Shown here piece after piece: positions 3,028 through 31,032 of a stretch of 64,000 bases of DNA. A program made the position numbers and the translations under genes. The stretch comes from Takakia lepidozioides. Lineage: Eukaryota > Plantae > Bryophyta. The stretch covers positions 28,148,001 to 28,212,000 of the forward strand of contig CM060732.1 of the NCBI GenBank assembly GCA_030704615.1. The letters are read 5' to 3'. Numbering within the stretch: the stretch's first letter is position 1; each line of letters starts with the position of its first letter. The notes below the pieces were generated by a model that worked only from the letters and a program-made list of their open reading frames with translations, had not been told where the DNA came from and ran no database searches.

Positions 3028-3274
3028 CTGGTGCTTAGGTCCCTCTAAGTCCAGGTAGCCACAAGATGTGATAGTGACCATAGCCTCACTAAGTCCTCCA
3101 CCACTATCCCTACTATACTCAAACTCGATAGATCAAGAGGCCGGGTGCAAGAGTTGCCCCATCGTTAGTCGCCGTCTTGCAACCTGTGAACTTGAGCTTG
3201 GGATCTCATGTATTGACTCCTATGAGCTTGGCCTCCCATGTCTTGTTAGCTGCCTCTAGTCATGTCCACTGCCA

Positions 3275-3934: not shown

Positions 3935-3936
3935 GG

Positions 3937-5271: not shown

Positions 5272-5319
5272 CCTCGCCTTGAGCTCTTGAAAAGCTCGTT
5301 CCTGATCATCTTCCCACTG

Positions 5320-6357
5320 TCACTCCTGGTCCACCTTGGTCAGCTTGGTTAGAGCCTTTGCAAGGGTACTAAATCCCTTGACAAACCGTCTATAATAATT
5401 TGCCAACCCCATGAAAGCTCGAACTCGGCTCACATCCGTGGGGCGTGGAATTTGTGCAATGGCCTCTACCTTAGTCTGCTGTACCCCCAATCCTCCAGGA
5501 AATATCATGTGACCCAGATACTCAATCTGGTTGTGGAAAAACTTGCACTTCCCCGAATGCAACTTCAATCCGTGCGCTCTCAAGCGCTCCAATACCACCT
5601 GAAGGTGTCTCTCATGCTCCTCCATCGTAACACTAAAGATGATGATGTCATCTATGTAGCACCGAGCAAAGCCCACCCCTGCTAGAATCCTATCCATGAC
5701 TCTCTGAAACTCTGCAGGAGCATTCTTAAGCCCAAATGGTAAGAACCGCCACTGATATAGGCAATCCTTGCCGTGCTCATTGATCCCCCATAATGCCGTC
5801 TTCTGCTTGTCCGTCTCCTTGATTGGCAACTGGTGATATCCGGATCGTAAATCCAAAGTGCTAAAGGCCTTAGCATGCCCGATGGCATCAAAGATCTCCT
5901 CTGGTGTTGGCATGGCATACTTATCGGACTTGGTCTGACGATTTACAGGCCGGTAATCACCGCACATACGTCTCTCCGTCCAATTGCCATAGACATCCTT
6001 CTTTGTTGGCATCACTGTGGCTGAAGCATACTCTCCACCAGAGAGCTCCACCAAACCTGCCTCCTAGAGATCTTGAGTCCTCATCTGAATCAAAGACCTC
6101 TCCATGTCACTGTATCTATAGGGTCTCCGAAAGATTGGCGTGTCAGTGGCCAACTTGATACGGATCTCTTGATCCTTCAGTGCTCCCAAGTCCTTCAAAC
6201 TGAAGGCAAAGCAATTCTTGTAAGCCCTCAGGAACCGCCGTATACGTTGTCTCTCTCCTCCGGTGACAATGGGTCCAATGTCAGGCTCCCAATTGTCCTC
6301 CGTAACTGCAACCTTAAGTCCAGTGGGCTTAGAGGTAGAGGACGCGTCCAGTGGTTG
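5320..6357 (-). pseudogene. Reverse transcriptase (copy A), in frame with the DNMT ORF
   Basis: [28 protein letters not shown]. The frame continues from 6357. Additional stops at 6064-6066 and 5320-5322. Confidence 0.95.
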
Positions 6358-7620
6358 CTATGTTGCAACCTCTTGAGCAGTACTCCCTGCCTGCTCAGTC
6401 AATGACAAGGCCTCATCCTGCCCCATCATCTCATCCTTGAGGACCTCCTCAACCGGAGAAGAATCCCCAACCTCATCCATCACAGCCGCCTTGGCTGCCA
6501 ACTCCCTCTGAACCTCGAGCACCTCCCACGTGTGCCATGGATGCATGCACCCCGTGGTCCTTACATGCTCGCCCCCACCAACTGCCTGTACCGTCTCGGT
6601 AGGCAGAGAGACCATTGAGGGAAGTGTACTCCGCACTCTGCGTTCCTTAGCCAAAGCCAAGCTGATAATCCAGGTCAAGCAATTGAGATCCATTGCTTGC
6701 CCCAACACTTGACGACGTGATGCCTCAGAAAGAGACGACACCGCCGTGGTACCAGTGGTAAAACCCATTGCCCGCTCACGCTCGTCAGCATTAGGCTCCA
6801 CTAACTTCTGCAACTGAGCATCCCACAGGAGGCCAGGTCCACTATCCCGGAAAGCATGCGATCCTGGGAAGCTGAGCAGTGTAGGTAATGCTGCTCGTGG
6901 TTGACCCACCTTGTTGACCACTGCCAAAGGCAAACGGTCATCGTGTCTCACACGCTGAGACTGCCTCCCTGTGTCCAGAATGTTATCCACTGTGAGATGT
7001 GCTGGCCGCTGCACCCCATCAAATGCACGCTTGAGCAGTGCGGGTGGCATCAAGTTAGTCCACCATAGCCGTGGACGATGAGCCCGTGACCCCACTGTAG
7101 CTGCATCTAGCAACACTGCTGACCCAAGCCACGACCGGACTTGATGCACACTGGCCATCACCCTGGCCCGAGAATCGCCCATCAGTGGCACATTCTCCAA
7201 GATGTATGCTGGAGATACAGCTTGATGAAACTGCAAGTGGCGCAAAACCCGCACCATCTCCCAAAACAGACCCGACCTCGAGTCTCGCAATCCATTGCCA
7301 TGCCCGGCTGATGAATGCCCTTGGCAGGGCCAACCTGCCACTACCAGATCAATGGAGCCATCCCGCTCCAAATCCTGCGCCCCCAGCAACGAAATGTCTG
7401 CTGGCAAGGCCTGCTGATATCCACGAATTGCAGACACCGACAACAACTCAGGGTACCGCTGCACCAACTGAGCAACATGGCGAAGTGAAACACGTCGTGC
7501 AGTCTCATCCCTCTCCACATACAGGTAATGTCGAACTCGTATACCTGCTTGTAACACAGCAGCCAATCCGGTGCTGATCCCGCCAAACAAGTCCAGAAGA
7601 CAAATGCCTTCATCGATACT
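6358..7620 (-). CDS. DNMT3-like C5 cytosine methyltransferase domain in the polyprotein (copy A)
   Basis: Motif I LLDLFGGISTG, IV GWPCQG, VI ILENV, VIII AHRPRLWWTNL, IX ERERAMGF, X RRQVLGQAM, in canonical (non-permuted) order. Confidence 0.93.
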   Translation of the reverse strand, partial: SIDEGICLLDLFGGISTGLAAVLQAGIRVRHYLYVERDETARRVSLRHVAQLVQRYPELLSVSAIRGYQQALPADISLLGAQDLERDGSIDLVVAGWPCQGHSSAGHGNGLRDSRSGLFWEMVRVLRHLQFHQAVSPAYILENVPLMGDSRARVMASVHQVRSWLGSAVLLDAATVGSRAHRPRLWWTNLMPPALLKRAFDGVQRPAHLTVDNILDTGRQSQRVRHDDRLPLAVVNKVGQPRAALPTLLSFPGSHAFRDSGPGLLWDAQLQKLVEPNADERERAMGFTTGTTAVSSLSEASRRQVLGQAMDLNCLTWIISLALAKERRVRSTLPSMVSLPTETVQAVGGGEHVRTTGCMHPWHTWEVLEVQRELAAKAAVMDEVGDSSPVEEVLKDEMMGQDEALSLTEQAGSTAQEVAT

Positions 7621-9067
7621 GCCACACAATAGGTGTGGTGTCCAATGGAGACAATTGAGGTGGTCCTGGTGCAATCCCCACACTCTCCTCCTCTCCTGAC
7701 GGTACAAAAGCCTCCACCCAGGCTTGTTGCACCCGTCGATCAGCATCCCGTTGCAAATCCTTGCTCGTGCCCCACAATGGAGTCTGAGCAACCATGGTAG
7801 GCAACTCCGCCATACCATACATGTCATCCTGCTCTCTCGGAGGTGGTACATCCTCTGAATGAGCATTGCCCTCAAGCAACTCTCTAGGCCAACTCACTGC
7901 CGCTGTGAATGCTGCTAGTGTCGGCATCTTGCCTCGCTGGGCAACCGCAACTCCTCCTATGAACGTCACAGGGAGCTGCACACGCCGGCCCTCCCCTGAC
8001 TGCCATGCAGGCCTATAGGAAGCTGACTCCTCCCAAAAATCCAGGGTGAAGCCCATGGGGTACAACACTGCCCCACCAACCAGGACATCGTATGAGACTG
8101 CGTCTGTCACAATGGCCTTGGCTCGCATCACTGAGCCATCTGTAGGGTGATCTGGCCGTAGTCTGATAGCCAATTCACGCCGTGTCATGCCCCGAGCCTG
8201 CTCCGATCCTCCCAAAGACGTCTGTATCTGGAATGGACAAGGCTCCATATCCACCTCCGTGAGGCCCAAGCCTGCAATAGCAGCTCTGCCTAGCATCAAT
8301 GGCTGAGCTCCCGAGTCCAACAAGACCCGCAGTGGCCGGTACCTCTTGCCTGCCGGTCCACTCAAACAGAAAATGCCATCCTGGTTGTCTAACATGACAA
8401 CTCCAGGTGTCACCATGGCGCGCTCAATGACTGGCCTAGCTGGCAGCTCCATCAACCTGGCAGCTGCAGCTTGCCATGGCACCGCCATGGCAGTCTTGAC
8501 CCTCAAATCCGAGGATCCCTCTGGCACTACACCTCCCACTATCTCCGCAGAAGATGAAGTAACCTCCCCACTCTCACAGAGTGTAGCTGCCAACCTGAAC
8601 ACCTCAGCTGGTCTAACCCCCGGCGTCGCAATCGTGGTAGCCGAAAACAATGGAGCCTGGCACACAGATGTGGCCGCTCCTAGCAGCACACTAGCTGCCG
8701 CAGCCTTGGCAACACTAGGTAGTGGTTCTACCCGTGTAGCTCTCCCCAATGGCATAGTAACCTCCGCCTCGGTAACCGTCGGGCGAGAACTAGGTGCCAT
8801 GGATGGCGTCGACACTGTCTCCGCCAATGTGAATGACTGAGAAAGCCTAGCCTAACGGCTTGCCTCTCCACGCTGTGGATCCAACTCCACCTCTGCACCT
8901 CGTGGCTCAGGAACTCGTGCTGCTCCTCGAGTCACGGCTGCAGCCGACTCCACCTGCACTAGTGGTAGTGCTGCTCCACACATGAATCCCATGCCTCCCA
9001 TATCTCCTCCCTCAGGAGCAGGAGGTGGACCATCCGGCCTTAGAGCCGGTATCACCTGAGCTGTAGC
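7610..9067 (-). CDS. Gag-protease linker and aspartic protease (copy A)
   Basis: LRVLLDSGAQ...YDVLVG. There is a 2-nt frameshift at about 7615 relative to copy B. Confidence 0.85.
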
Positions 9068-9762
9068 TGTCGCGGCCCTTTGCCTTGAGGGCAGGGGGTC
9101 GGGACACATGAGGGGCTGCCCCTGTGGTGGGGGCAGCGGCAGCGATAGGTATGGGGGGCTGAAGCACCCTTGAGTGCCCAAGGCACTCAGGGAAGCGGAG
9201 GCGCTCACTAGGTGGAGCCCCGCACACCGGGTTGCGGTGGGGGTGGCTCCACAAGGGGTGGTGGTAGCTTAGTGGGACTTAGTGGGGGTGGCATAGGACT
9301 CACCATGGGGCGGAGACCTCGTGGTGGGAGTCGTGAGGAGTCTTGGGACTCATCACGGTCCATAGGGGCCGTGGTGAGCGGGCCAAGACTCACCGCGACT
9401 CACCACCGGGAATCGAGGGTCTTCGTGGTGGTTCGCCATAAAATGGCATGGCTGGTTGTGAAACCCCCGCGGACAGCTACAGAAGTATATATAGGAGTAG
9501 TAACCCGAGAACGGTGCAAGCCCGTTGGTGACCAAAAACTAGTGAGTAAGCGAGCGAGCTGGAAAGCGACCAAAGAGTGGGGAGCTGTTCCGGACTGCCA
9601 TCTACCAAAGGGAATTCCACTAGGCCCAAATAGGTGGAGGGTCTTTCGGGGGAGCGAAGGGGGACCGTTATGTCCCGGTGAGCAGCCGAAGCTCCAAGTT
9701 GGCCCGGCGGCCGGTTGGGAGTCAGGCGCGCGCAGAAAAGCGAGTAACTATGACTTGAGGGG
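9068..9762 (+). repeat. Chromovirus 5' LTR (U5 end and PBS deleted)
   Basis: Matches 14542 to about 15232, then joins directly to mid-gag. Confidence 0.9.
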
Positions 9763-9763
9763 C

Positions 9764-12700
9764 ATGGCAGAACCAGAAATGGTCTTCAACTTTGTGGCGG
9801 GACTGGCCCCATGGGCCAGGCGGAAGTTGGAGGAGAAGCCACCCAAGACTTTGAACGAGGCTATTGAGAGGGCAGAATGTTTCTCAGATGTCCCTAGGGG
9901 TGAAAGACAAGGCCGTACGGAGCTGAACCACAAGAAGATTCGGCGGGAAGGTGACTCCTTCCGACCGGAAAAGAAGTGGGATAGGCCACGCGGCGAAAAT
10001 GGCACGTGGAAATCGAAGGGAGGGCCTTCACACGTCAAGGCGGCACCCGGTGCTTCGAAAGGAAAAGCGGGTGGAGCGGCTTATGGCGGACAGAAGGCGA
10101 CCTTTGATGGAGTGTGTTTCAATTGCGGGGAGCCCGGGCACATGGCCAAGAAGTGCACGAAGCCCCGGCAATTGAACATAACTCGGGCGACCACGGAGCT
10201 GTCGGAAGATACCATCAGTCGCTTGGTGGAAGCGGTGGTCGCCAGGACTTGCAAGGTAGGCAAATTTTCTTGTGAGTTGTATCAGGAAACTGGCGCCTTA
10301 CGAAAAGGGAGTCAGTTATTGTTCGTGGATGGGATAATATCCGGAACTAATGTGTTGTTGTTGGTGGACATAGGAGCGTCGCACTCCTTCATGACACGGC
10401 AACGGCACAAAAGCTGGGACTCCCGACAAGTGACGTGGGGGCCTCTATTGAGGTGCGTTCTGCCAAAGGAGAACCACAGTTGGCGACAAGGTTGGCGATA
10501 AATGTTCCTCTTCAACTGGGGAGTTGGGAGGACGTGAGAACTTCACCATCTGCGAGATCGATGGAGTGGATCTCATTTGGGGATGACCTTTTTGAGCAAA
10601 TCCGGAGCGGTCATAGATGGCCGCAAGAGATAGTCACGCTGCCATGTGGGAATGGTGGCAAGGTTTTACGAGTGTCAGAAACGCCCAAATCCGTGGGAGG
10701 GCGAATAAACCTTCTGTCAGCAAAGGAGTGGGCCGTGGAGGAGGCACACGAGCCCAATTTTTGCTTTACATTAGAGAAGTGAAAGGAGAAGGCGATGGGG
10801 AGCCGAGCCCAGATTGGATCAAGGGGATTTTGGAGAAATACCAGGATGTGATGCCGGAGGATTTACCAAGCGGCTTGCCACCGCGAAGAGGAGTTGACCA
10901 CAAGATTGAGGTGATACCGAGATCGGAACCGCCTGCCAAGGCGCCCTACCGGTTGAGCCACAAAGAGTTGGTCGAGCTGAAGACTCAGCTCAAGGATCTA
11001 ATGTCAAAGGGGTACATCTGGCCGAGTAAGTCACCTTACGGAGCCCCGGTGCTATTTGCAGACAAGAAGGATGGGACGCTGCGGATGTGTGTCGATTACA
11101 GGGCTCTAAATAAGGTGACTATCAAAAACCGGTACCCTTTGCCAAGGATCGACGACCTCTTCGATCGGTTGGCAGGAGCGAAGTATTTCAGCCGGATCGA
11201 CTTGCGCTCCGGCTATCACCAAATTCGGGTGGCGGAAGGAGATGAGGAGAAGACCGCGTGCAGGACAAGGTATGGTTCATATGAGTTCTTGGTGATGCCT
11301 TTTGGGCTCACCAATGCACCAGCGACATTTAGCACGCTGATGAACAGCCTTTTCCAGGAGTGGTTGGATGACTTTGTGATCGTGTACATCGACGACATCT
11401 TGGTGTACTCGAAAACAAAGGAGGAGCACCTGGAGCACCTCAAAAGGTGTTCCAAAATTGCGGGAAGGGAAGCTGTATGCCAAAGCTTCAAAGTGCGAAT
11501 TCGGGGTCACAAAAGTGGAGTTCCTGGGGCATGTGATTACACAGGATGGGATCAAATGGATGACAGAAAGGTGAGGGCGATCTTGGACTGGGAGCCTCCG
11601 ACTTCGGTCCCGGAGTGCGATCCTTCCTAGGACTCGCCTCCTATTACCGGAAGTATGTGAGAAATTTCGCCAAGATCGCGGGGCCGCTGTCGGACCTTCT
11701 GTGTAAATCCAAAGTCTGGGTATGGAACACATTTTGTGGCCAAGCTTTTGCTGAATTGAAGCAGTGGATGACGGAAGCTCCAGTCTTGAAAATCCCGGAG
11801 TTCGATCGTCCGTTTGAGATTCATACAGATGCATCGGACTTCGCGATTGGGGGTGTACTTATGCAAGATGGACGTCCAGTGGCTAACGAAAGTAAGAAAC
11901 TGAATGAAGTGGAGCGATGGTGGCCGACGCACGAAAAAGAGATGAAGGCGGTGGTGCATTGCCTTGAGCTCTGGCGCCACTATGTTGGTTCCAACCCAGT
12001 GAAGGTGTTCACGGACAATGTCACGGTGAAGTATTTTGCCACGCAGCCCAAGTTGTCCCCAAAACAACTTAGGTGGCAAGATACTTTGGCAGTGTTCGAC
12101 GTGGATATCCAGTACAAACCGGGATGGGACAATGTGGTGGCCGATGCTTTAAGTAGAAAGCAGCAGCTCTTGTTGGTGTACAAGGGCGAGACGGCGCTCC
12201 AAAGGAAGATCCGGAAGGCTTGCCGGAAGGATGAGCTGGCAAAGTCCGTGATGCAGGACTTGAGAATGGGGTTAAATCGCAGTTCCACTTGCAAAATGGA
12301 CTGCTCCGGTATAAGCAAAAACGTCTCTACGTGCCGAAGGGAGGGATCAGAGATAGCCTCTTGAGAGAATGCCATGATAACCCACTTGCGGGCCACGGCG
12401 GAGCCAAGCGCACTGCGGCACTCTTGAAGAAAGAGTATTTCTGGCCCAAACTGAGGGAGGAGGCAGAGGAGTATGTCAAGACATGCACCACATGCCAACA
12501 AAACCGGAGCGAGTACAAAAAGCAAGCGGGGCTGTTACAACCCTTGCCGATTCCAGAGGGGACTTGGGAAAGCGTCTCGATGGATTTCATGACTGCTATG
12601 CCGCTGTCAAAAGAATTCGATGCAATCATGGTGGTGGTAGATAGGTTCAGTAAAATGGGCCATTTCATCCCACCAAGGAGACGGCAACGGCGCAGGAGAC

Positions 12701-13638
12701 AGGGCGACTTTACTTCGCCCACGTCTTAAAGCATCATGGAGTCCCGAAGGATATTGTCTCGGACCGCGATCCAAAGTTTACGAGTAAATTCTGGAGAGCA
12801 CTTTGGAAGAAGATGGGGACGAGGCTGAAGATGAGCACCGCCTTCCGACCTACGACCGACGGCCAAACAGAAAGAGTGAATTCCGTAGTGAAGCAGATCT
12901 TGCGGAATTACGTGTCGGCAGACCAACAGACTGGGTGGAACACTTAGACGCGGCAGAGTTCTGTTATAATAACACACTCCGCAACGGGAGTTTCCCCTTT
13001 CGTATTGGTCTATGGAAAAGCACCTCTGGTGCCGACAAGTTGGGCCGCCCAGGACGTTGAGGAACCGGCAGTAGCGGCGGTACTGGAAGAACGCGAGCGT
13101 TTGTTGAAGCTCGCAAGTACAACATTGCCAAAGCTAGGAAACGGTATGAAAGGCAGGCGAATGGAAGCGGAGGGAAGTGAAGTTTGAGGCAGGCACAGAG
13201 GTCTGGTTGAACATCAAGAATTTCTGACTACCTCCGGAAGTGAGTCCGAAGTTCGTACCTCCGTATGGGGGTCCCTTTTGCATTCGGAAGGTTATGAATG
13301 AGGATGTGTATGAATTGGAGCTGCCGGCAAACAGCAAGGTGCACCCAGTATTCCATGTCTCCCTTTTGAAGCCTTACTTCAAAAATGAAGCACGTCCGAA
13401 TCGGCATCAAGTGTTGCGTCCGCCACCTATGATGTTAGATCATGAAAATGAACCTGAGTACGAGGTGGAGGCAATACTTAAGTCGAGGAGGTTCAAGAAC
13501 CGAGAAACGGAGTATCTCGTCAAATGGAAGGGCTATCATCATGTGGAGGCATCTTGGGTGCGTGCCTCAGAAATGGGAAACGCATCCGAGGCAGTTGCAG
13601 CGTTCGAAGGGCGACCTCAAAAGCGGAAGAAACGTTGA
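9764..13638 (+). pseudogene. Chromovirus gag-pol, frameshifted
   Basis: CFNCGEPGHMAKKC; LVDIGASH; YIDD; HTDASDFAIG; HDNPLAGH..CTTC; SMDF; PYGGPF; chromodomain EYEVEAIL...YLVKWKGY. Confidence 0.92.
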
Positions 13639-14541
13639 TGGGGACATCAACCTTGGAGCGTGGGGGAGGAAATGCATGCTTAGCCCGGTTAGCTAGCTCA
13701 GGAATCCGATTGCAAAAACTTGTATTGTACAAAAATTTGTTATAAAGGAAATGGGTTCCAAATATTCTGCGTCCTATTGTGTTTGGAATGGTGATGCATG
13801 GTGTGGTTGGCTAGTGTGTAGAATGCATGCTAGCTTACAAAAGTGGGAGAGGTAAATTGGTTAATCGTGTGTTTGCGCAGTGCCAAATCGGGTGACTCCC
13901 ATCCAAGGGGCAAGGAAACTTGCGCCTTCTTTGGGAGTTCACGTGCTAGTGCGCACCTGGCGCATGCGCGTACTATAACTGCGCTACCGAGGGGGTTGCC
14001 TTGTAGTGCGGGCTAACGCGGAAGCTACGTGCTTCCGTTCACGTACTATAATCGTGTAGCCTCGGGACGAAGTCGTAGTGCGGCTTTGGCGTGTTCCCGT
14101 ACCTCAGGCCAGCATTCCAAGGCGGACCCAATTGTAGTGATTGGGGCGCACGGTTGGTTCAAGGTTATCTTCCTAGTCAAAGAGGGTTCTAGGTGAACCC
14201 TTGCTCAAGGTGATGCCAAAAGCGGCATCATGAGCGATCGCAAGCAATGTTGTTGCAGTAAGGCGATTCGATCCTCGGGGAGGATCGTTCCTTGGCCTTG
14301 AAGTAGGCCAAGAAGAGTGCACTGGGAGGAGCTGGAGAGGCTCCACCCTTGGCCGGGACTTGGAGGAAGTCGGCCGAACTAGCTAAACGAGAGTAGAGTC
14401 AAGTGTGGGGTTTGGTTCTTTGCCATGGGACGCCATGGTACAAAAACAAACTCCTTGATGTGGGACGCCACAACTTGGATGTTTGTTTCTACAAAATGGA
14501 CAAGTCGATGAGGACATCGACTCCCTGTTGGTAGGGGTGTG

Positions 14542-15259
14542 TGTCGCGGCCCTTTGCCTTGAGGGCAGGAGGTCGGGACACTTGAGGGCTGCCCCTGTGG
14601 TGGGGTAGCGGCAGCAATAGGTATGGGGGCTGAAGCACCCTTGAGTGCCCAAGGCACTCAGGGAAGCGGAGGCGCTCACTAGGTGGAGCCCCGCACACCG
14701 GGTTTCGGTGGGGGTGGCTCCACAAGGGGTGGTGGTAGCTTAGTGGGACTTAGTGGGGGTGGCATAGGACTCACCATGGGGGCGGAGACCTCGTGGTGGG
14801 AGTCGTGAGGAGTCTTGGGACTCATCACGGTCCATAGGGGCCGTGGTGAGCGGGCCAAGACTCACCGCGACTCACCACCGGGAATCGAGGGTCTTCGTGG
14901 TGGTTCGCCATAAAATGGCATGGCTGGTTGTGAAACCCCCGCGGACAGCTACAGAAGTATATATAGGGAGTAGTAACCCTGAGAACGGTGCAAGCCCGTT
15001 GGTGACCAAAAACTAGTGAGTAAGCGAGCGAGCCAAAAGCGACCAAAGAGTGGGGAACGTTTCGGACTGCCATCTACCAAAGGGAATTCCACTAGGCCCA
15101 AATAGGTGGAGGTCTTTCGGGGGGCGAAGGGGGACCGTTATGTCCCGGTGAGCAGCCGAAGCTCCAAGTTGGCCCAGCGGCCGGTTGGGAGTCAGGCGCG
15201 CGCAGAAAAGTGAGTAACTATGACTTGAGGGGGAGCTTACCGAAGTGAGGTGCGCGACA
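14542..15259 (+). repeat. Chromovirus 3' LTR (718 bp)
   Basis: TG...CA with a 7-bp inverted repeat; direct repeat of the segment starting at 9068. Confidence 0.93.
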
Positions 15260-16722
15260 GTAGCCATGGCAGCGAGCCTCTGCTCTAGCTGCTGAAGCCG
15301 GTTGGCCATGCCTTGGTCAACACCCTGACCCCCACGTCCTTGGCCACGTTGAGGTTGCCCTTGGCCTCGTGGCTGGCCACCTCGTCCTCTCTGCTGCTCC
15401 ACCTCGCCCCCGGCCACCATTGTTCCTTGGAACTGGCCTGGGCGCAACTCAGGATGCAAACCATAACACTGGGCCCTCCATGCCCGTGCTTGCCACAATC
15501 CCACACTGCAACTGTGCAGGCTGTGCATGTGCCGACCCTTTGCCTCCCTCTGGGCAATCCTTCTTGACATGGGGTCCTCCACATGTCCAGCACACCACAT
15601 TTACCCATTGTTGGCCAGCAAATGAAGGGAGAGACCCCTGCATCTGAGGTCCTCTCTGCCCTTCCCTGAGCTTCACCTGAGCCCCCTTGTTGCCTTGAGC
15701 ACGTTGAGGTAGTGGTTGGCTAGGAGCACCACCCCGTGGTGTCTCCTTAGCAAATCCCACCATGACCACTCGTTCCTCCACCATGTTGAGCTCTATCCGT
15801 TCTGCCAGCAAAAACACATTTGCTAAGGTGGGTTGGGCCGCTTGTAGGAGAGTTGCATCCCGCACCCTTCTCCTCAGCTCCTTGTCCAATATCCCATACC
15901 AGAATTGGACTGCCTGAGCTTCCGTAACCCCTTGGGTTACATTAATCAAGCGCCTCATGCGAGTGAAAGCCTCCCTCAAGCTCTCGGTCGGCTTCCGTTG
16001 GAACTCTTGCAAGCTCCGCAACTTCTCTGTCCTCACCCCTTGGTAGTTCCCTCTCAACTCTTCGAAGAACTCCACAACAGGGTTGAAGGCAGGCACGGGT
16101 GCTAGTGCTGGTGCGGTAGTGGCTTGGGTGGACGTCGTAGCTACTGTACCACCAGTCCCACTAGTTCCCACTGCTACTTGCTGAAGCTGCCGGTGCAGCG
16201 GCAGGTGTAGCCACTGCCCTCGTGGCTCTAGTGCCCCTAGTGATGGAGACATAGTCGGGTGACCAGTACATCCTCCACTCCTCGATCTCAACCTCATGCC
16301 CCCGCCTGAACTCATGGTAATCATCCATAGGCGGCCCCTCAAGGTGCTGAAACAGCCCTTTCCATGCCATGAACGGCGTAAATAGTTTGTGGATTGCGCA
16401 TTTGCTGCAAATCACACCAACTATCAAACTCTTGGATAAAATCATCCAACTCGATGGTGCCCACCACCCCAGAGTACCTTCGTGGCCCCTTGGTAGCTCC
16501 ATACATCTCCTCCATTGTGTCCCACAACAATGGCAAAGAAACAACTTGCACCGCCGGTATGAGTCCTCCTGATTCACAATCCGAATCAGAACCTTCCGTG
16601 GAAGACACAAGAGGTGAAGGTGGCCTAAACCGCACACCTCGTCTCGTGTACCCACTAGTATCGCTAGTGCTCGAACCGGCACTGTCCCCAGCAACTAGTG
16701 GCACCTCCGTGTTGACACTCAA
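15260..16722 (-). pseudogene. Gag of copy A (frameshifted)
   Basis: LDDFIQEFDSW, QKPTESLREAFTR, CWTCGGPH, CGKHGH. Matches 24975-26417. Confidence 0.85.
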
Positions 16723-17052
16723 CCGGTCATGAACATGTCCCTAACCCCCTCTCCACAAGGTAACCGGGTAGAGAACCTGTTGCGGCTTATGGTTTGGAAT
16801 ACTAAGTTCCTAACATAGCCTACACTTGTACCTGCATCCACCGCAAGCACTCCTATGGTTGGCTGGTCATCACTTCCAACCTCACCACAGGAGAAACAAT
16901 GATGGTCTGGCTGGTCATCACCCCAGCCTCACCATCGACAGCATGCTCTAGGACTGGCCGGTGATCAAATCCGGACCATCACCTATAAAAACAAGCGCCC
17001 ACACAAAACTAGCATGGCGCACAGTCAAGCATGCAGGTATGGAGGGGATCCA

Positions 17053-19337: not shown

Positions 19338-19660
19338 TTGTTACAGCCCGCCACAACCTGTCAAAGCCTGTCACAACCCGTCACAACCCCATAGGCCGCA
19401 TGGCACAGCCTGTCACAGCCTGCCACAGCCTATCACAGCCCCTCACAGCCCCACAGGCCATAGGGCACAGCCTGTCACAGCCCGTCACAGCCCCACAGGC
19501 CACTCCTGACAGTTTAGCCATTTCTCCAAGGGGTTTAGCCATGCCAAGCTAGGGTTTGTGTCTCTTGGACTCTAGGCTTCTTTGCACCGAGCTATGGCGG
19601 CTTTGAAGAAATCAGCAAGATATTCTTGCTCTTTCGGCTCCCACACACCACCAATAGTAG
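19338..19660 (-). mobile_element. 5' leader segment of host copy B' (continues at 29526-31032)
   Basis: Matches about 27700-27971 and ends in the GTAG TSD. Confidence 0.75.
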
Positions 19661-19841
19661 TGTTGTGCGCATTCATATCGCTACACAACTACATCGCTGT
19701 CCAAAACCACACAACACATGTGCACACCACACACTAATATACCACTAGTCCACCACTAGTCCAGCCACTAGTCCAACCACTAGGCTACAACTAGTCAGTC
19801 ACTAGGCTGCCACTATGCTGCCCATTATGGCAGTCACCACA
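19661..19841 (-). repeat. Terminal repeat B2
   Basis: Homologous to 20172-20371, with small deletions. Confidence 0.9.
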
Positions 19842-19842
19842 A

Positions 19843-20169
19843 TGATAAAGAAGAAGAATACAAGCACAAGCTCATGCGAGCTCACAAAGCTAAAGCATAA
19901 ACTCATGCATGTATAACCTTATCACTCAAATACAAGTCAAGCCAAGTGCACCCCACGCCATGGGGAATCCACACTACGGTGCCATAGCTAGGCGCGGTGA
20001 GGCTCAACTCGAGAAAGATGAGCCTCCCGCGCTTGCCGTGAAGATAACCATTCCAGGGCCTAAATCTGCCTTGACCCCTGGATTGATACTTGGGCCAATC
20101 CCAAATGTCAATATATAAAAGCTAGCTATTTCTTAGCTAGTTTCATACTAGTGGTAAAATAACTTGACA
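19843..20169 (-). repeat. Terminal repeat A2 (327 bp)
   Basis: TGATAAAG...AACTTGACA; homologous to 29199-29525 and 30707-31032. Confidence 0.9.
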
Positions 20170-20171
20170 GC

Positions 20172-20371
20172 TGTCGTGCGCATACATATCGCTACACAAC
20201 TACATCGCTGTCCAAAACCACACAACACATGTGCACGCCACACACTAGTATACCACTAGTCCACCACTAGTTCAGCCACTAGTTCAACCACTAGTCCAAC
20301 CACTAGGCTACAACTAGTCAGTCACTAGGTTGCCACTATGCTGCCCACTATGGCAATCACTAGTCCACACA
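20172..20371 (-). repeat. Terminal repeat B1 (200 bp), adjacent to the PPT
   Basis: TG...CA; PPT at 20372-20384. Confidence 0.9.
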
Positions 20372-20631
20372 ATCGCCCCCCTAGCTGGTGCTTAGGTCCC
20401 TCTAAGTTCAGGTAGCCACAAGATGTGATAGTTATCATAGCCTCACTAAGTCCTCCACCACTGTTCCTACTACACTCAAACTCGATAGATCAAGAGGCGG
20501 GGTGCATGAGTTGCCCCATCGTTAGTCGCCGTCTTGCAACCTGTGAACTTGAGCTGGGGATCTCATGTATTGACTCCTATGAGCTTGGCCTCCCATATCT
20601 TGTTAGCTGCCTCCAATCATGTCCACTGCCA

Positions 20632-22110
20632 CTATCCCAAGCAGTGTGGACACAACCAATCTCCGTCAGGAACCTTATCAAGAGGTGGTGTCAAGCATCC
20701 CATATGCCATCCCCTTGAGCATCGATCACACACCAGCACGGTGGCTGCCCCTTTGGCAGACCCACAAAGCATGCACCTCAAACCTGCACGTACCACTGGC
20801 AAGTTTGGATCAACTCTGCCATCAACATTGGGAAGGTGTCATGGCGCAGAATTACGCACATGTCCTTCCAAGTCATGCTATCCCGACCCTCCAAGATCAG
20901 GACTCCTGAGGGCAATACCTCTTGAACCCTCAGAATAACACGCCCTACAGTGACATCCAGGGTCGTAGGAGTAGTCTGCTGCAAATAAACATAGTCACCA
21001 GGGCTAAACCTCCGAACCCCAGGACGATATCCTCCACCACGTATAGTGGCATACCTCAACGATATGGTGCTATGCAATGGCAAGGTTCTCAAAAGCCATG
21101 GGCATGACTTTCTTGAACAACTCTGCATGCTGATCACATGCACGTACCTACACGTCCGGATCATCAACGTTGAGGACTTGAGCAGTGTCCCTACGAATGG
21201 CTACAGGAAAATCCGGCTCTCGGCCAAAGAGAAGGAAATATGGTGAGAAATATGCAAGTGATGCTTGTTTGCTGAACCTGCAGCCCATGGCTAACCGAGG
21301 CACCTGAAGATCCCAATCTCCTAGGTGTCCTTTCTGCAAGCCATACTTGCGCAGACCCTCTTCACCGTCTGAACACTCTCTCTGCCAAGCCATCGGCCTC
21401 AGGATGATCCCGAGAAGTGGTGCGGTGGTATATCAAGGCTTTATCACACAAAGCCTGAAACTCCCCCAAGAACTCTCTCCCTTGGTCCGTGAGTACCTCA
21501 GCTAGAGCACCGAATCGGCTAAGCACACAATCCAAGAATGCATACGCAGCCCCCTCACTAGCCTTGTCGCGCAATGGAACCAACTCAATCCACTTAGAGA
21601 AGTGCTCCACCATCGCCAACACATATCTGTGGTGGCGCATAGTCAGTGGCAATGGTCTTGCGAAGTCAAGACTCCACTTGTAGCCCAATCCCATGATTGG
21701 TAAATGATGCAACTGGGGTGTAGGGGCGTTGAATGAAGCACGCACCATGTCACACACCATGCACCTAGCCACAAACTGTTGCACCTCTGTACGCATACCA
21801 CGCCACCAATACTGCCCCTGCAGTAAATTGTGAGTGCGTCGCACTCCAAAATGCCCCAACCCCTCATGGGCATGCCGCACTAACCGTGCATGCTGTATGG
21901 GGTGAGGCACAATCCTCACCCGACCATCCTCCCATACTTGGAGCAGGTGTATCCCCTCCCACTTGAACCTTTTGGCTCGTTGCAGGATCCGATCCCTCTC
22001 CTTGGCAGTCACAGTGGCTGTCATGTCTCCAGTACGGAGGTAGTCCAACACAGCCGAATCCTCATGTATATCTCTGGTACCACCTGGCTTATCACTAGCC
22101 TCAGGGTCCT
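20632..22110 (-). pseudogene. Integrase plus PHD (copy B), frameshifted
   Basis: HEGLGH..CMVC, WSLDF, LTDQGREF. PHD sequence matches 3275-3420. Confidence 0.9.
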
Positions 22111-22197
22111 TGGTCCAATGTCAGGCTCCCAATTGTCCACCGTAACTACAACCTTAAGTCCAGTGGGCTTAGAGGTAGAGGATGCGTCCAGTGGTTG

Positions 22198-23616
22198 CTA
22201 TGTTGCAACCTCTTGAGCAGTACTCCTTACCTGCTCAGTCAATGACAAGGCCTCATCTTGCCCCATCATCTCATCATCGAGGACTTCCTCAACCTGAGAA
22301 AAATCCCCAGCCTCATCCATCACCGCCACCTTGGCTGCCAACTCCCTCTGAACCTCGAGCACCTCCCACGTGTGCCATGGATGCCTGCACCCCGTGGTCC
22401 TCATATGCTTGCCCCCACTCACTGCCTGTACCGTCTCGGTAGGCAGAGAGACCAGCGAGGGAAGTGCACTCCGCACTCTACGTTGCTCAGCCATAGCCAA
22501 GCTGATAATGGAGGTCAAGCAATTGAGATCCATTGCTTGCCCCAACACCTGACGACGTGCTGCCTCAGAAAGAAATGACACCGCCGTGGTACCAGTGATA
22601 AAACCCATTGCCGGCTCACGCTTGTCAGCATTAGGCTCCACTACCTGCTGCAACTGAGCATCCCACATGAGGCCAGGTCCACAATCCCGGAAAGCATGCG
22701 ATCCTGGGAAGCTGAGCAGTGTAGGTAATGCTGCTCGTGGTTGACCCACCTTGTTGACCACTGCCAAAGGCGAATGGTCATCGTGTCTCATATGCTGAGA
22801 CTGCCTCTCTATGTCCAGAATGCTATCCACTGTGAGATGTACTGGCCGCTGCACCCCATCAAATGCACGCTTGAGCAGTGCGGGTGGTATCAAGTTAGTC
22901 CACCATAGCTGTGGACGATGAGCCCGTGACCCCATTGTAGCTGCATCTAACAACACTGCTAACCCAAGCCACGACTGGACTTGATGCACACTGGCCATCA
23001 CCCTGGCCCGAGAATCGCCCATCAGTGGCACATTTTCCAAGATGTATGTAGGAGATACAGGCTGATGAAGCTGCAAGTGGCGCAAAACCCGCACCATCTC
23101 CCAAAACAGACCCGACCTCGAGTCTCGCAATCCATTGCCATGCCTGGCTGATGAATGCCCTTGGCAGGGCCAACTTGCCACTACCAGATCAATGGAGCCA
23201 ACCCGCTCTAAATCCTGCGCCCCCAACAACGAAATGTCTATTGGCAAGGTCTGCTGATATCCACGAACTGCAGCCACCGGCAACAACTCAGGGAACCGCT
23301 GCACCAACTGAGCAACATGGCGAAATGAAATATGTCGTGCAGTCTCATCCCTCTCCACATACAGGTAACGCCAAACTCGTACACCTGCCTGTAACACAGC
23401 AGCCAATCCGGTGCTGATCCCGCCAAACAAGTCCAGAAGACAAATGCCTTCATCCGGATACTGCCACACAATAGGTGTGGTGTCCAATGGAGACAACTGA
23501 GGTGGTCCTGGTGCAATCCCCGCACTCTCTTCTACTCCTGATGATACAAAAGCCTCCACCCAGGCTTGTTGCACCCGTCGATCAGCAACCCACTGCAATC
23601 CTTGGTCGTGCCCCAC
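22198..23616 (-). CDS. DNMT3-like methyltransferase (copy B)
   Basis: LLDLFGGISTG, SWPCQG, ILENV, AHRPQLWWTNL, LGQAMD. Ends EVAT-TAG-CAACCA. Confidence 0.92.
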   Translation of the reverse strand: MGHDQGLQWVADRRVQQAWVEAFVSSGVEESAGIAPGPPQLSPLDTTPIVWQYPDEGICLLDLFGGISTGLAAVLQAGVRVWRYLYVERDETARHISFRHVAQLVQRFPELLPVAAVRGYQQTLPIDISLLGAQDLERVGSIDLVVASWPCQGHSSARHGNGLRDSRSGLFWEMVRVLRHLQLHQPVSPTYILENVPLMGDSRARVMASVHQVQSWLGLAVLLDAATMGSRAHRPQLWWTNLIPPALLKRAFDGVQRPVHLTVDSILDIERQSQHMRHDDHSPLAVVNKVGQPRAALPTLLSFPGSHAFRDCGPGLMWDAQLQQVVEPNADKREPAMGFITGTTAVSFLSEAARRQVLGQAMDLNCLTSIISLAMAEQRRVRSALPSLVSLPTETVQAVSGGKHMRTTGCRHPWHTWEVLEVQRELAAKVAVMDEAGDFSQVEEVLDDEMMGQDEALSLTEQVRSTAQEVAT

Positions 23617-24962
23617 AATGGAGTCTGAGCAACCATGGCAGGCAACTCTGCCATATCATACATGTCATCCTGTTCTCCTGGAGGTATGTCATCCTCTGAA
23701 TGAGCGTTTCCCTCAAGCAACTCTCCGGGCCAAGTCAGTACAGCTGTAAATGCTGCTAGTGTGGGCATCTTGCCCCGCTGGGCAACCGCAACTCCTCCTA
23801 TAAACGTCACAGGGAGCTGCACACGCCAGCCCTCCCCTGACTGCCATCCAAGCCTATAGGAAGCTAACTCCTCCCAAAAATCCAGGGTGAAGCCCATGGG
23901 GTACAACACTGCCCCACCAACTAGGACATCGTACGAGACTGCGTCTGTCACAATGGCCTTGGCTCGCATCACTGAGCCATCTGTAGGGTGATCCAGCCGT
24001 AGTCTGATAGCCAACTCATGCCGTGTCATGCCCCGAGAATGCTCCGATACTCCCAGGGACGTCTGTATCTGGAAAGGACAAGGCTCCATATCCGCCTTCG
24101 TGAGGCCCAAGCCTGCAATAGCAGCTCTGCCCAACATCAATGGCTGAGCTCCCGAGTCCAACAAGACCCGCAGTGGCCGGTACCTCTTGCCTGCCGGTCC
24201 ATTCAAACAGAAAATGCCACCCTGGTTGTCTAACATGAGAACTCCAGGTGTCACCATGGCGCGCTCAATGGCTGGCCTAGCTGGCAGCTCCATCAACCTG
24301 GCAGCTGCAGCTTGCCATGGCGCCGCCGTGGCAGTCTTGACCCTCAAATCCGAGGATCCCTCCGGTACTACACCTCCCACTATCTCCGCAGAAGATGAAG
24401 TAACCTCCCCACTCTCACAAAGTGTAGCTGCCAGCCTGAACACCTCAGCTGGTTTTACCCCCGGCGTCGCAATCATGGTAGCCGAGAACAATGGAGCCTG
24501 ACACACAGATGTGGCCGCTCCCAGTAACACACTAGCTGCCGTAGCCTTGGCAACACTAGGTAGTGGTGCTACCCGTGTAGCTCTCCCCAATGACGTAATA
24601 ACCTCCACCTCGGTATCAGTCGGGCGAGTACTAGGTGCCATGGATGACGTCGACACTGTCTCCGCCAATGTGAATGACTGAGGAAGCTTGGCCTGACGGC
24701 TTGCCTCCCCACGCTGTGGATCCAACTCCACCTCCACACCTTGTGGCTCAGGAACTTGTGCTGCTCCTCGAGTCACTGCTGCGGCTGACTCCACTTGCAC
24801 TAGTGGTAGTCCTGCCCCGCACATATTGGTAGTGGTAGTGGCACCCCTCATTAGTGGTAGTGCTGCCCCGCACATGAATCCCATGCCTCCCATATCTCCT
24901 CCTTCAGGAGCAGGAGCTGGACCATCCGGCCTTGGAGCCGGTACCACCTGAGATGTGGCCAT
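23532..24962 (-). CDS. Linker plus aspartic protease (copy B)
   Basis: LRVLLDSGAQ. Confidence 0.85.
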   Translation of the reverse strand: MATSQVVPAPRPDGPAPAPEGGDMGGMGFMCGAALPLMRGATTTTNMCGAGLPLVQVESAAAVTRGAAQVPEPQGVEVELDPQRGEASRQAKLPQSFTLAETVSTSSMAPSTRPTDTEVEVITSLGRATRVAPLPSVAKATAASVLLGAATSVCQAPLFSATMIATPGVKPAEVFRLAATLCESGEVTSSSAEIVGGVVPEGSSDLRVKTATAAPWQAAAARLMELPARPAIERAMVTPGVLMLDNQGGIFCLNGPAGKRYRPLRVLLDSGAQPLMLGRAAIAGLGLTKADMEPCPFQIQTSLGVSEHSRGMTRHELAIRLRLDHPTDGSVMRAKAIVTDAVSYDVLVGGAVLYPMGFTLDFWEELASYRLGWQSGEGWRVQLPVTFIGGVAVAQRGKMPTLAAFTAVLTWPGELLEGNAHSEDDIPPGEQDDMYDMAELPAMVAQTPLWGTTKDCSGLLIDGCNKPGWRLLYHQE

Positions 24963-24974
24963 GGCAGCGAGCCT

Positions 24975-26417
24975 CTACTCTAGCTGCTGAAGCCGGTTGG
25001 CCATGCCTTTGTCACCACCCTGACCTCCGCATCCTTGGCCATGTTGAGCTTGCCCTTGGCCTGCACCTCGTGCCTGGCCACCTCGTCCTCTCTGGGCTGC
25101 TCCACCTCGCCCCCGACCACCATTGTTCCCTTGGAACTGGCCTGGGCGCAACTCAGGATGCAAACCATAACACTGGGCTTCTCCATGCCCGTACTTGCCA
25201 CAATGCCCACACAACAACTGTGCAGGCTGTGCATGTGCCGGCCCTTTGCCTCCCTCTGGGCAATCCTTCTTGACATGGGGTCCTCCACATGTCCAGCACA
25301 CCACATCCGCCCGTTGTCGGCCAGCAAATGAAGGGAGAGACCCCTGCATCTGAGGTCCTCTCTGCCCTTCCCTGAGCTTCACCTGAGCCCCCTTGTTGCC
25401 TTGAGCATGTTGAGGTAGTGGTTGGCTAGGAGCATCACTACCCCGTGGTGTCTCCTTAGCAAATCCCACCATGACCACTCGTTCCTCCACCATGTTGAGC
25501 TCTATCCGCTCTGCCAACAAAAACACATTTGCTAAGGTGGGTTGGGCCGCTCGTAGGAGAGTTGCATCCCGCACCCTTCTCCTCAGCTCCTTGTCCAATA
25601 TCCTATACCAGAATTGGACTGCCTGAGCTTCCGTAACCTCTTGGGTTACATTTATCAAGTGCCTCATGCGAGTGAAAACCTCCCTCAAGCTCCCAGTCGG
25701 CTTCCGTTGGAACTTTTGCAAACTCCGCAACTTCTCTGTCCTCACCACTTGGTAGTTCCCTCTCAACTCTTCGAAGAATTCCACAATAGGGTTGAAGGCA
25801 GGCACGGGTACTGGTGCTGGTGCGGTAGTAGCTTGGGTGGACGTCATAGCTATGGTACCACCAGTCCTACTAGTCCCACTGCTGCTTGCTGAAGCAGCCG
25901 GTGCAGCTACTGCCCTCGTGGCTCTAGTGCCCCTAGTGATGGAGACATAGTCGAGTGACCAGTACATTCTCCACACCTCGATCTCAACCTCATGCCCCCG
26001 CCTGAACTCATGGTAATCATCTATAGGCGGCCCCTCAAGGTGCTGAAACAGCCCCTTCCATGCCATGAAAGGCGTAAATAGTTGTGGATTGCGCATTTGC
26101 TGCAAATCACACCAACTATCAAACTCTTGGATAAAATCATCCAACTCGATGGTGCCCACCACCCCAGAGTACCTTCGTGGCCCCTTGGTAGCTCCATACA
26201 TCTCCTCCATTGTGTCCCACAACAATGGCAAGGAAACAACTTGCACCGCCGGTATGAGTCATCCTGATTCACAATCCAAATCAGAACCTTTCGTAGAAGA
26301 CACAGGAGGTGAAGGTGGCCTAAACCGCACACCTCGTCTCGTGTACCCACTAGTATCACTAGTGCTCGAACCGGCACTGTCCCCAGCAACTAGTGGCACC
26401 TCCGTGTTGACACTCAA
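24975..26417 (-). CDS. Gag (copy B) with two zinc knuckles
   Basis: CWTCGGPHVKKDC and CGHCGKYGHGEAQC. The stop at 24975 is CAG in copy A. Confidence 0.85.
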
Positions 26418-27815: not shown

Positions 27816-29198
27816 CATGACAGTTTAGCCATTTCTCCAAGGGGTTTAGCCACGCCAAGCTAGGGTTTGTGTCTCTTGGACTCTAGGCTTCTTTGCACCG
27901 AGCTATGGCGGCTGTGAAGAAATCAGCAAGGTATTCTTGCTCTTTCGGCTCCCACACACCATCAATAGTAGCCCTAAGCCATGAGGAAGATGGTTGCCAC
28001 AAACCAAGCCTTCTTTCTCACTTAGACTCCCCAAACACGCCACTAAACTCAATGGCAAACAACCGAGCCTTGTTGGTTTCCAGCCCTATGAGCACTCATT
28101 CAAGCGTTTCCCTTGGCCATAGCATCTGTCTTAGAGCCTATTCTAGCCCCTTACACCTGCCACTTCAAGAGCCATGCTCTATCTAGGCTTGAGGTTGAAA
28201 CCCCAACTCAGAACACGCTCTACAAGTGTCGGACTGTCACATAAGAGCAGATCAGCCCCTTACCTTCTCTTCTAGTTCTCTAAAGCTTGAAAACAAAAGC
28301 CCAATGGACTGAAGGCATGCTCCACACATGCCCCACTCTCACCACCAGAGAATCAGCCCATTTGCTTTCTTTCTTGTACCCACCAACCTGAAAATACACG
28401 CTTCAGCGGGCTGGAAGCATGCTCCACACATGCCCTATAGGGAAACTAGCCCCTTCCTTCCTTCCTTTCTTGCACTCCCAAACCTGAAAGTACAAGCCTT
28501 CAACAGGCTGAAAGCATGCTCCACACATGCATTGCTCTCACATAAGGGAAGTCAGCCCTTCCCTCTTCCTTGCTTGCCTCCAAGCTTGAAGATGGAAGCT
28601 TCAATGAGCTGAATACATGCTCCACACATGCAACCTCTTCACACAAGGGGTATCAGGCCCCTATTTTGGCTCCTTAGCTCCTTGATGCTCTCTAAGACAA
28701 GACTAAGCACTCCACAGCCCTTGCCAAGCTCCTGAAACCCTAAGGCTTACATTTCCAGCCACAAGACACTCCTCTTGTGGTGCAAGAGCTCTTATTCCAA
28801 GCTCTGAAACCCTAGGTGCACATTCCATGGCCTTGCCGCAACACTTAGCTCCTATTCTAGCCCTGCTCTTGCCATGACAAGAGCCCTCTCAATGCTGAAG
28901 CTCGAGATTGAAACCCAATCTCAACATACTCCACAAAGTGCACTGATTTGCCCCAAGCCAAATCAGCCCTTTCGCTTGGTCTTGTAATCCTGCAGCATGG
29001 TGCTTTCATCTCTGAAGCTGAAGATCGAATGCCAAGGTCTACCACCTCATAACCCACATCGCCTCCGCTTCTAACAAGCAAGAGCTCCACGGTGCTCCTT
29101 GCATAACAACCTGGTTTCTCTCATTCTCAAGCAAAAACCACAAGTGCTACAACTAACTCGTATCTGGCACTCACAGATACGAGCTCATCTTTCTCGGG

Positions 29199-29525
29199 TG
29201 ATAAAGATGAAGAATACAAGCACAAGCTCATGCGAGCTCACAAAGCTGAAGCATAAACTCATGCATATATAACCTCATCACTCAAATACGAGTCAAGCCA
29301 AGTACACCCCACGCCATGGGGAATCCACACTACGGCGCCATAGCTAGGCGCGGTGAGGCTCAACTCGAGAAAGATGAGCCTCTCGCGCTTGCCGTGAAGA
29401 TAACCACTCCAGGGCCTAAATCTGCCTTGACCCCTGGATTGACACTTAGGCCAATCCCAAATATCAATATGTAAAAGCTAGCTATTTCCTAGCTAGTTTC
29501 ACACTAGTGGTACAATAACTTGACA
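29199..29525 (-). repeat. Terminal repeat A1 (5' end of copy B)
   Basis: Homologous to A2; flanked by the GTAG TSD. Confidence 0.9.
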
Positions 29526-31032
29526 GTAGCCCTAAGCCATGAGGAAGATGGTTGCCACAAACCAAGCCTTCTTTCTCACTTAGACTCCCCAAACACGCCA
29601 CTAAACTCAATGGCAAACAACCAAGCCTTGCTGGTTTCCAGCCCTTGTGAGCACTCATTCAAGCGTTTTCCTTGGCCATAGCATCTGTCTTAGAGCCTAT
29701 TCTAGCCCCCTACACCTGCCACTTCAAGAGCCATGCTCTATCTAGGTTTGAGGTTGAAACCCCACCTCACATATGCCCTACAAGTGCTTTTCTTTCACCC
29801 AAGTGGGAACCAGCCCTAGCCCTTCCATTCTAGCTCTCTAAAGCTTGAAAACAAAAGCCCAATGGACTGAAGGCATGCTCCACACATGCCCCACTCTCAC
29901 CACAAGAGAATCAGCCCCTTTGCTTCCTTTCTTACACCCACCAACCTAAAAAATACACGCTTCAGCGGGCTGGAAGCATGCTCCACACATGCCCTACAGG
30001 GAAACCAGCCCCTTCCTTCCTTTCTTGCACTCCCAAACCTGAAAGTACAAGCCTTCAACAGGCTGAAAGCATGCTCCACACATGCATTGCTCTCACATAA
30101 GGGAAGTCAGCCCTTCCCTCTTCCTTGCTTGCCCTCCAACTTGAAGATGAAAGCTTCAATGAGCTGAATACATGCTCCACACATGCAACCTCTTCACACA
30201 AGAGGTATCAGGCCCATATCTTGGCTCCTTGTCTCATTGATGCTCTCTAAGACAAGACTAAGCACTCCACAGCCTTTGTCAAGCTCCTGAAACCCTAAGG
30301 CTTACATTTCCAGCCACAAGACACTCCTCTTGTGGTGCAAGAGCTCTTCTTCCAAGCTCTGAAACCCTAGGTGCACATTCCATTGTCTTGCCACACCTCT
30401 TAGCTCCTATTCCAGCCCTGCTCTTGCCATGATAAGAGCCCTCTCAATGCTGAAGCTCGAGATTGAAACCCAATCTCAACATACTCCACAAAGTGCACTG
30501 CAGCATGGTGCTTTCATCTCTGAAGCTGAAGATCGAATGCCAAGGTCTACCACCTCGTAACCCACATCGCCTCCATTTCTAACAACCAAGAGCTTCACGG
30601 TGCTCCTTGCATAACAACCTGGTTTCTCTCATTCTCAAGCAAAAACCACAAGTGCTACAACTAACTCGTATCTGGCACTCACAGATACGAGCTCATCTTT
30701 CTCGAGTGATAAAGATGAAGAATACAAGCACAAGCTCATGCGAGCTCACAAAGCTGAAGCATAAACTCATGCATATATAACCTCATCACTCAAATACAAG
30801 TCAAGCCAAGTGCACCCCACGCCATGGGGAATCCACACTACGGCACCATAGCTAGCGCGGTGAGGCTCAACTCGAGAAAGATGAGCCTCCCGCGCTTGCC
30901 GTGAAGATAACCACTCTAGGGCCTAAATCTGCCTTGACCCCTGGATTGACACTTGGGCCAATCCCAAATGTCAGTATGTAAAAACTAGCTATTTCTTAGC
31001 TAGTTTCACACTAGTGGTCAAATAACTTGACA
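29526..31032 (-). mobile_element. 5' end of host copy B' (repeat A at 30707-31032 plus leader)
   Basis: Direct repeat of 27968-29525. Confidence 0.8.
30691..30706 (-). promoter_or_regulatory. Putative self-priming PBS
   Basis: Perfect 16-nt reverse complement of 30871-30886 inside repeat A. No TGG tRNA-type PBS at this position. Confidence 0.7.

Follow-up and report, generated by a model that had tools for sequence, protein, structure and literature searches.

A probably self-primed, cytosine methyltransferase-bearing Ty3/gypsy element in Takakia lepidozioides whose inserted DNA is likely a circular permutation of its cDNA

Results

The window analyzed here, a stretch of 64,000 nucleotides of Takakia lepidozioides DNA (contig CM060732.1), contains copies of a retroelement family, all of them broken. 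The minus-strand frames encode gag, protease, a C-5 cytosine methyltransferase, reverse transcriptase (RT), RNase H, and integrase and close with a PHD finger; the methyltransferase domain (PF00145) is placed between protease and RT within pol. A plus-strand orientation was rejected because the minus strand carries the frames, the polypurine tract (PPT), and the primer binding site (PBS) alike. The domain order gag-protease-RT-RNase H-integrase and the Ty3-like RT, whose best solved relatives are 4ol8 and Ty3-G Gag-Pol 7q5b (E ∼1e−46), identify the element as Ty3/gypsy. The closest named relatives of the methyltransferase are from Calypogeia and Marchantia (75%) and Sphagnum (70%). These relatives and a PPR-DYW gene in the window would by themselves suggest a land plant host, probably a bryophyte. 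No Klebsormidium protein was named among 93 and 74 matches, the weakest of which was an insect DNMT3B-like protein, and an RT search of viral contigs gave no matches. No chromodomain follows the integrase, where a PHD finger is succeeded by the stop codon; PF00385 is listed for 0 of 74 long relatives, and PF00628 for many. None of the 22 frames scanned matched a tyrosine recombinase, and an rve integrase is present. With no chromodomain and a 4-bp target duplication, the element is Ty3/gypsy but not a chromovirus of the Tf1/sushi/Tcn1 type.

TABLE 1 Features of the element copies in the Takakia window
Feature	Position	Strand	Remarks
Repeat A, 5' copy of older element P	30707..31032	-	326 nt, TGTCAAG...TTTATCA; unlike flanks diverge at 31032 in contigs of runs X8 and X12
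TATA-homologous position, degenerate TTATCTT	30904..30910	-	Alignment A3; putative function
Predicted self-primer	30871..30886	-	Conserved core ∼30871-30882, likely the first 11 to 12 nt of the RNA
PBS of copy P	30691..30706	-	Directly after terminal CA; no TGG start
10-bp hairpin just 3' of PBS	30665..30691	-	Specific to the window family
Left 4-bp target-site duplication CTAC, copy Q in leader of P	29526..29529	-	
Repeat A1, left end of copy Q	29199..29525	-	Primer 29364-29379
PBS of copy Q	29183..29198	-	Pairing 15/16
Copy Q frames, all broken: gag, protease, cytosine methyltransferase, integrase	21362..26258	-	RT-RNase H deleted
Polypurine tract AGCTAGGGGGGCGA	20373..20386	-	Same tract in family S
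Repeat B1 (TTGTGTGG...GCACGACA)	20172..20372	-	Directly after PPT; 40 run X1 contigs diverge at 20172 into unlike flanks
Palindrome GACA-GC-TGTC at B1/A2	20166..20175	.	Integrated ends head to head; likely integrase site (putative role)
Repeat A2	19843..20169	-	
Repeat B2, right end of copy Q	19661..19842	-	A2/B2 joins PBS-defined to PPT-defined end
Right 4-bp target-site duplication CTAC	19657..19660	-	Copy P leader resumes at 19660-19343
Further family copy with frames for RT, RNase H, integrase, and PHD	2860..17052	-	Single B end at 2860; 5' end behind N gap 17053-17552

Repeat A is present three times in the window, with copies that are 95 to 96% identical, and repeat B occurs twice in copy Q (Table 1). 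What the original prediction had called repeat A and copy B are two 5' copies of one repeat, of which the third lies at 19843-20169; this repeat amounts to only half of the LTR that the primers define. Copy Q has the order A1-PBS-leader-ORFs-PPT-B1-GC-A2-B2 with CTAC on both flanks, and it sits inside the leader of the older copy P; the primer and PBS described below lie at the 5' end of copy P. This insertion explains the apparent tandem of repeat A, and in view of the CTAC duplication the reading of repeat A as the LTR of a separate tandem mini-element was rejected. The leader also contains tandem repeats of 10 nt and ∼100 nt (27123-27814 and 28250-28650), and an inverted fragment of the methyltransferase region (17553-19338) lies beside a 500-N gap.

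The window holds several other features. A nested chromodomain gypsy element at 9068-15259 (plus strand) is bounded by a 5-bp duplication, GTAGC, and has lost its 5' LTR end and PBS up to the start of gag; the RT of the family described here is 34% identical to the RT of this element. An intact 882-amino-acid PPR protein of the RNA-editing type, with E, E+, and DYW domains, is encoded at 37875-40523 (plus strand). Direct repeats of 460 bp, 5.46 kb apart, surround transposase-like and integrase-like fragments at 49911-55831, and two arrays lie outside the element at 32398-33745, one with a 10-nt unit and the other with a 53-nt unit that contains inverted arms.

The PBS of copy P is the exact reverse complement of 30871-30886 in the interior of repeat A (sequence CTCGAGAAAGATGAGC), and recomputation reproduced both the 16 of 16 matches of the original prediction and the 15 of 16 that it gave for the second copy. 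A 17th pair, 30707 with 30870, involves the terminal base of repeat A. The single mismatch in copy Q is an A-C at PBS position 2, adjoining the primer 3' end. When the 326-nt repeat A was subjected to 1,000 dinucleotide shuffles and pairing was counted from PBS nucleotide 1, the longest perfect pairing reached a maximum of 9 and a mean of 3.7. There is no spacer between the terminal CA of repeat A and the PBS, and the PBS lacks a TGG start in all three families compared (the window family, family S, and that of locus L057). Folding of the minus-strand leader gave z scores of −6.9 and −7.4, with 0 of 200 shuffles equally stable. The adjacent 10-bp hairpin, CTCGTATCTG-7nt-CAGATACGAG, is present as had been described and shares one base, 30691, with the PBS, but it was rejected as a conserved part of the system since family S and L057 contain no hairpin like it.

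A scan with the methyltransferase alignment yielded 166 related stretches, of which 80 were kept as loci; 47 of the 80 match the repeats or leader of family S. ARAGORN, run on the window and 60 of these loci, found 0 tRNAs. The family S primer (AACATAGTTCTTTGAG) and PBS (CTCAAAGAACTATGTT) pair at 16 of 16 positions in locus L074, and the L057 primer (GACATTCTTGTCAAG) and PBS (CTTGACAAGAATGTC) pair at 15 of 15. The observed pairing was reached by 0 of 1,000 shuffles in each of the three families. Covariation across families, proposed with the original prediction as a check on it, is evident both in crossed pairings and in paired changes. Primers pair with their own PBS at 15 to 16 of 16 positions but at only 4 to 9 of 16 when crossed between families, and 10 of the 16 primer-PBS pairs differ between two families. 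Across the 14 rows of alignment A3, pairing holds in 90.4% of 157 cells, and both sides have changed in 9 of 14 pairs, a result reached by 0 of 500 shuffles and compared with 33 to 50% pairing in slid controls; most of these cells stem from one split between two families and so represent few independent events. MAFFT misaligns L057 in A3 and shifts the PBS register in alignment A4; for L057, the comparison was therefore anchored on the end of the repeat.

Pairing within family S was counted in 14 independent copies, which remain of the 24 aligned rows after removal of 4 duplicate rows, 4 rows that lack the primer through deletion, 1 gapped row, and 1 row with an insertion. PBS positions 1 to 11 pair (Watson-Crick or G-U) in 11 to 14 copies each; 5 copies pair at position 12 and 6 at position 14, and positions 13, 15, and 16 pair in 11 to 13 copies. 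Of 20 independent family S 5' repeats, 4 have lost the primer by deletion. The primer 3' end lies 160 to 174 nt ahead of the end of repeat A in the window family, family S, and L057. In family S and L057, TATAAA or TATAAT begins 26 nt before the duplex (24 in some copies of family S), which places the TATA box ∼30 nt ahead of the 12-nt core. No canonical TATA occurs at the homologous place in the window family, which has only the degenerate motif listed in Table 1. A TATATAA at 30774-30780 was discarded as a promoter, since it lies downstream of the primer and copy A2 does not keep it. The bases just ahead of the primer in family S and L057 repeat the PBS start and fold back on the primer with 10 to 12 bp (L074:1828-1857; L057, ∼8825-8855), so that the primer would be hidden in RNAs that include those bases.

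Whole A...B-A-B elements are present at L053 and L074. Identical complete LTRs at both ends were not found; copies end in A on one side and in B-A-B or a single B on the other. Among 10 loci with both ends, the 4-bp duplication is exact in 7, has one mismatch in 2, and is absent from L049, while an exact 5-bp duplication was found in 0 of 10. The palindrome GACA-NN-TGTC occurs at the B/A junction in all five families seen (window, S, L057, L059, and the second family of L044); the loci that carry it are L006, L017, L053, L074, L044, L057, and L059, plus the window. The A/B junction puts the A end next to the base that immediately follows the PPT, exactly so in copy Q and L017; one base is changed in L074, L066 and L067 keep 9 PBS bases, and L053 has a 20-nt insert. 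The main A/B junction in run X1 reads TTTATCA and then TTGTGTGGAC, and the main form is uniform in runs X1 and X3. Retroviral 2-LTR junctions are joined cDNA ends with remnants or inserts, and the PBS remnants and insert seen here are as expected of joined cDNA ends. Since the A/B junction unites a PBS-defined with a PPT-defined end, the primer 3' end is fixed at PBS position 1, whose only known partner is the internal stretch of repeat A.

In run X5, contig depth was ∼200 inside the element, 385 to 460 in A, and 182 at A/B; depth is not copy number, but these values hint that most copies carry the A/B junction. Counts of family S ends made by hand gave B before the 5' end in 0 of 20 independent cases and continuation of the 3' end into A in 4 of 20 (5 with the fused L054/L055), an asymmetry with a Fisher P of 0.053 for 4 of 20 and 0.024 for 5 of 20. 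The remaining 15 family S 3' ends stop in a single B, which may be due to one-repeat circles, to recombination at a later time, or to the collapse of short reads. For L057, a single contig with leader-like sequence at both of its ends reads B-GT-A-PBS; this is likely a collapsed assembly, or else a normal LTR.

Other arrangements were seen among the relatives. Truncated or rearranged copies at L037:7304, L026:4608, L008:2014, and L066:13153-13441 join internal sequence either to the end of A or to the start of B set by the PPT, as fits the joining of free cDNA ends; those in L037 and L066 keep near-exact or exact 4-bp duplications. A further family at L044:15783-17192, whose integrase tail is 43% identical, has the same type of end, PPT-B-GT-A-B, together with a TATAAAA box; none of the 80 loci includes the 5' end of this family. 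At 20368, 37 run X1 contigs match the PPT side and continue into unlike sequence, probably because they belong to sister families with a common PPT region and another B.

Discussion

The best explanation of these observations, to which we assign a probability of roughly 80%, is a methyltransferase/PHD Ty3/gypsy element that likely primes itself and whose DNA copy is likely circularly permuted at insertion. Very probably, judging from complementarity and its conservation, the element primes reverse transcription with the first 11 to 12 nt of its own RNA and not with a tRNA. The extent of the conserved core, ∼11 to 12 bp, places the likely RNA start near 30881-30882 on the minus strand, 4 to 5 nt inside the 16-bp stretch. 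RNA beginning there would anneal by its 5' end to the PBS ∼165 nt downstream, and a cut in the annealed 5' end, probably by RNase H, would free a 3' end at 30871. The degenerate TATA position of the window family and the family S repeats that have lost the primer speak against this reading.

Two other sources of the primer have to be weighed against the RNA 5' end. The window PBS ends in ATGAGC, presumably six bases in common with half-tRNA-Met sites, a resemblance that would speak for a host tRNA or tRNA half as the primer and for the internal complement as a mere leader hairpin. ATGAGC is missing from family S and L057, however, and the three families have three PBS sequences, none with a TGG start and each matched by its own repeat. 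A search of Rfam over 29000-31100 gave only one sub-threshold chance match (E = 0.79). Although tRNA priming is usual in plant LTR elements in the part of a survey covered here (PMC6317226), we regard it as very improbable in this case. It is also improbable that the 3' part of the RNA supplies the primer, with the stretch in A2 being cut or ended there and annealing to the PBS. The same 16 nt are indeed present in A2, but two families have their TATA box 26 nt ahead of the duplex, pairing decays past position 11 to 12 as it would for a 5' end, and the upstream bases in family S and L057 fold onto the primer and would hide it in longer RNAs.

The arrangement of the repeats bears on how the self-primed DNA copy is inserted. 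With the PBS following A and the PPT preceding B, ordinary reverse transcription by the standard pathway would build an LTR B-GC-A at both ends, and the product would be ordinary linear DNA. The integrated ends are the two halves of the internal palindrome, so the inserted DNA would be a circular permutation of the cDNA. We lean modestly toward a route in which this permuted cDNA is opened at the palindrome: integrase would cut GACA-GC-TGTC instead of the cDNA ends, and the latter would be joined (A/B) before or after insertion. Shorter A...B copies could come from one-repeat circles or from later B-by-B recombination. A 2-LTR circle contains two equal palindromes, yet B precedes 0 of 20 family S 5' ends while 4 or 5 of 20 3' ends carry B-A, and simple random opening is insufficient to explain this. 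A broader proposal stands at about even odds. It holds that, in a widespread gypsy lineage of bryophytes and algae, the integrase attachment sites have shifted from the cDNA ends to an LTR-internal palindrome and that the DNA normally inserted is either a self-primed circle or a linear form, cut internally, with its true ends joined.

Self-priming could also hold while the split repeats are inherited through RNA, as in PAT, Ngaro, and DIRS, with no joining of cDNA ends. Such inheritance would account for the same A...B-A-B layout, for the uniform main junction in runs X1 and X3, and for the single permutation seen among the loci compared, but we consider it unlikely: a recombinase domain is absent from the 22 frames scanned, no frame of at least 150 amino acids occurs in the leader or 3' region, the 4-bp duplications indicate a DDE integrase, and the junction unites a PBS end with a PPT end and differs among copies in retained PBS bases and inserts. 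A reading of A and B as LTRs of two elements, one small, tandem, and nonautonomous and the other gypsy, brought together by nesting or misassembly, is largely refuted. It drew on the tandem repetition of A plus 1.2 kb at 27967-31032 in a window with nested insertions and a gap, but the tandem is copy Q within copy P with its CTAC duplication, L053 and L074 show the whole layout with duplications of their own, and run X8 contigs carry the leader on past the insertion site.

The preferred reading, self-priming followed by insertion of a permuted copy, combines traits of several known systems. In Tf1, the primer is 11 nt long and is released by an RNase H cut. Self-priming has been demonstrated for Tf1 and proposed for Tj1 in the text covered (PMC4600332). 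As in Tf1/Tj1 and Tf1/sushi, the PBS of the window element comes right after the repeat and is complementary to the element's own predicted 5' end over a core of ∼11 to 12 bp, and the domain order is that of Ty3/gypsy. Unlike Tf1/sushi, it has a PHD finger in place of a chromodomain, a methyltransferase in pol, split and permuted repeats, and a 4-bp duplication. The parallel to Tf1/sushi drawn in the original prediction therefore applies to the scheme of priming from the element's own 5' end, which fits the covariation, and not to the class of the element. In plants, self-priming is predicted for Tcn1 and TAR, and the portion of the survey covered gives Tcn1 as the sole self-primed gypsy lineage (PMC6317226). 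Tcn1, from mosses and club-mosses, is described there with predicted self-priming in 83% of 1,500 elements and with chromodomains and 5-bp duplications in 100% (PMC6317226). The window element resembles this description in its predicted self-priming and non-seed plant host but has neither a chromodomain nor a 5-bp duplication. The same survey, as far as covered, lists the non-chromoviruses Phygy and Selgy from moss and club-moss hosts with a 4-bp duplication and no chromodomain, but with tRNA-Trp or tRNA-Ala priming and no extra domains, unlike the window element (PMC6317226).

A counterpart in layout is KnitGypsy-Dnmt3 of Klebsormidium nitens, which has a methyltransferase in its gypsy pol (PMC5890265). 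Its figure legend mentions DIRS-like repeats, and the supplement describes the DIRS layout as A1 and A2, the latter flanked by two B repeats (PMC5890265). On the basis of that legend, the window element shares the methyltransferase in pol and the DIRS-like A...B-A-B arrangement; the Klebsormidium host is an alga, and the text covered gives no priming mode, duplication, or mechanism. A 2026 preprint, in the part covered, mentions Gypsy-DNMT3 by name only (10.64898/2026.05.21.726589). A PHD-bearing gypsy with unequal LTRs is noted in Chlamydomonas in the text covered (PMC9940879). Foamy virus integrase, according to the text covered, cleaves a palindromic LTR-LTR junction (PMC1180852) and thus offers a precedent for an integrase that cuts the palindrome of two joined ends; that palindrome is a junction of true cDNA ends, whereas the one in the window lies inside the primer-defined LTR. 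The window element shares its A...B-A-B layout with PAT, Ngaro, and TOC1 but has a DDE integrase, PBS, PPT, and 4-bp duplications. Those split-direct-repeat elements encode a tyrosine recombinase. A literature search, with most subscription papers and Repbase outside its coverage, returned no account of self-priming or of a split-repeat mechanism in this lineage.

Relatives of the lineage are named in Marchantia, Sphagnum, Calypogeia, Riccia, and Closterium, and LTR-finding tools that require two equal LTRs would likely miss it. The findings would extend tRNA-free priming to a gypsy lineage that is not a chromovirus, backed by paired changes between families and not by a single complement, and they suggest an explanation, open to testing, for the DIRS-like repeats that had been recorded but left unexplained in Klebsormidium Gypsy-Dnmt3. 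Should the integrase act on the internal palindrome, the lineage would offer a natural high-copy case for the long-standing question whether LTR circles serve as regular precursors of integration, and the 1-LTR and 2-LTR forms that are dead ends in retroviruses would be working intermediates here.
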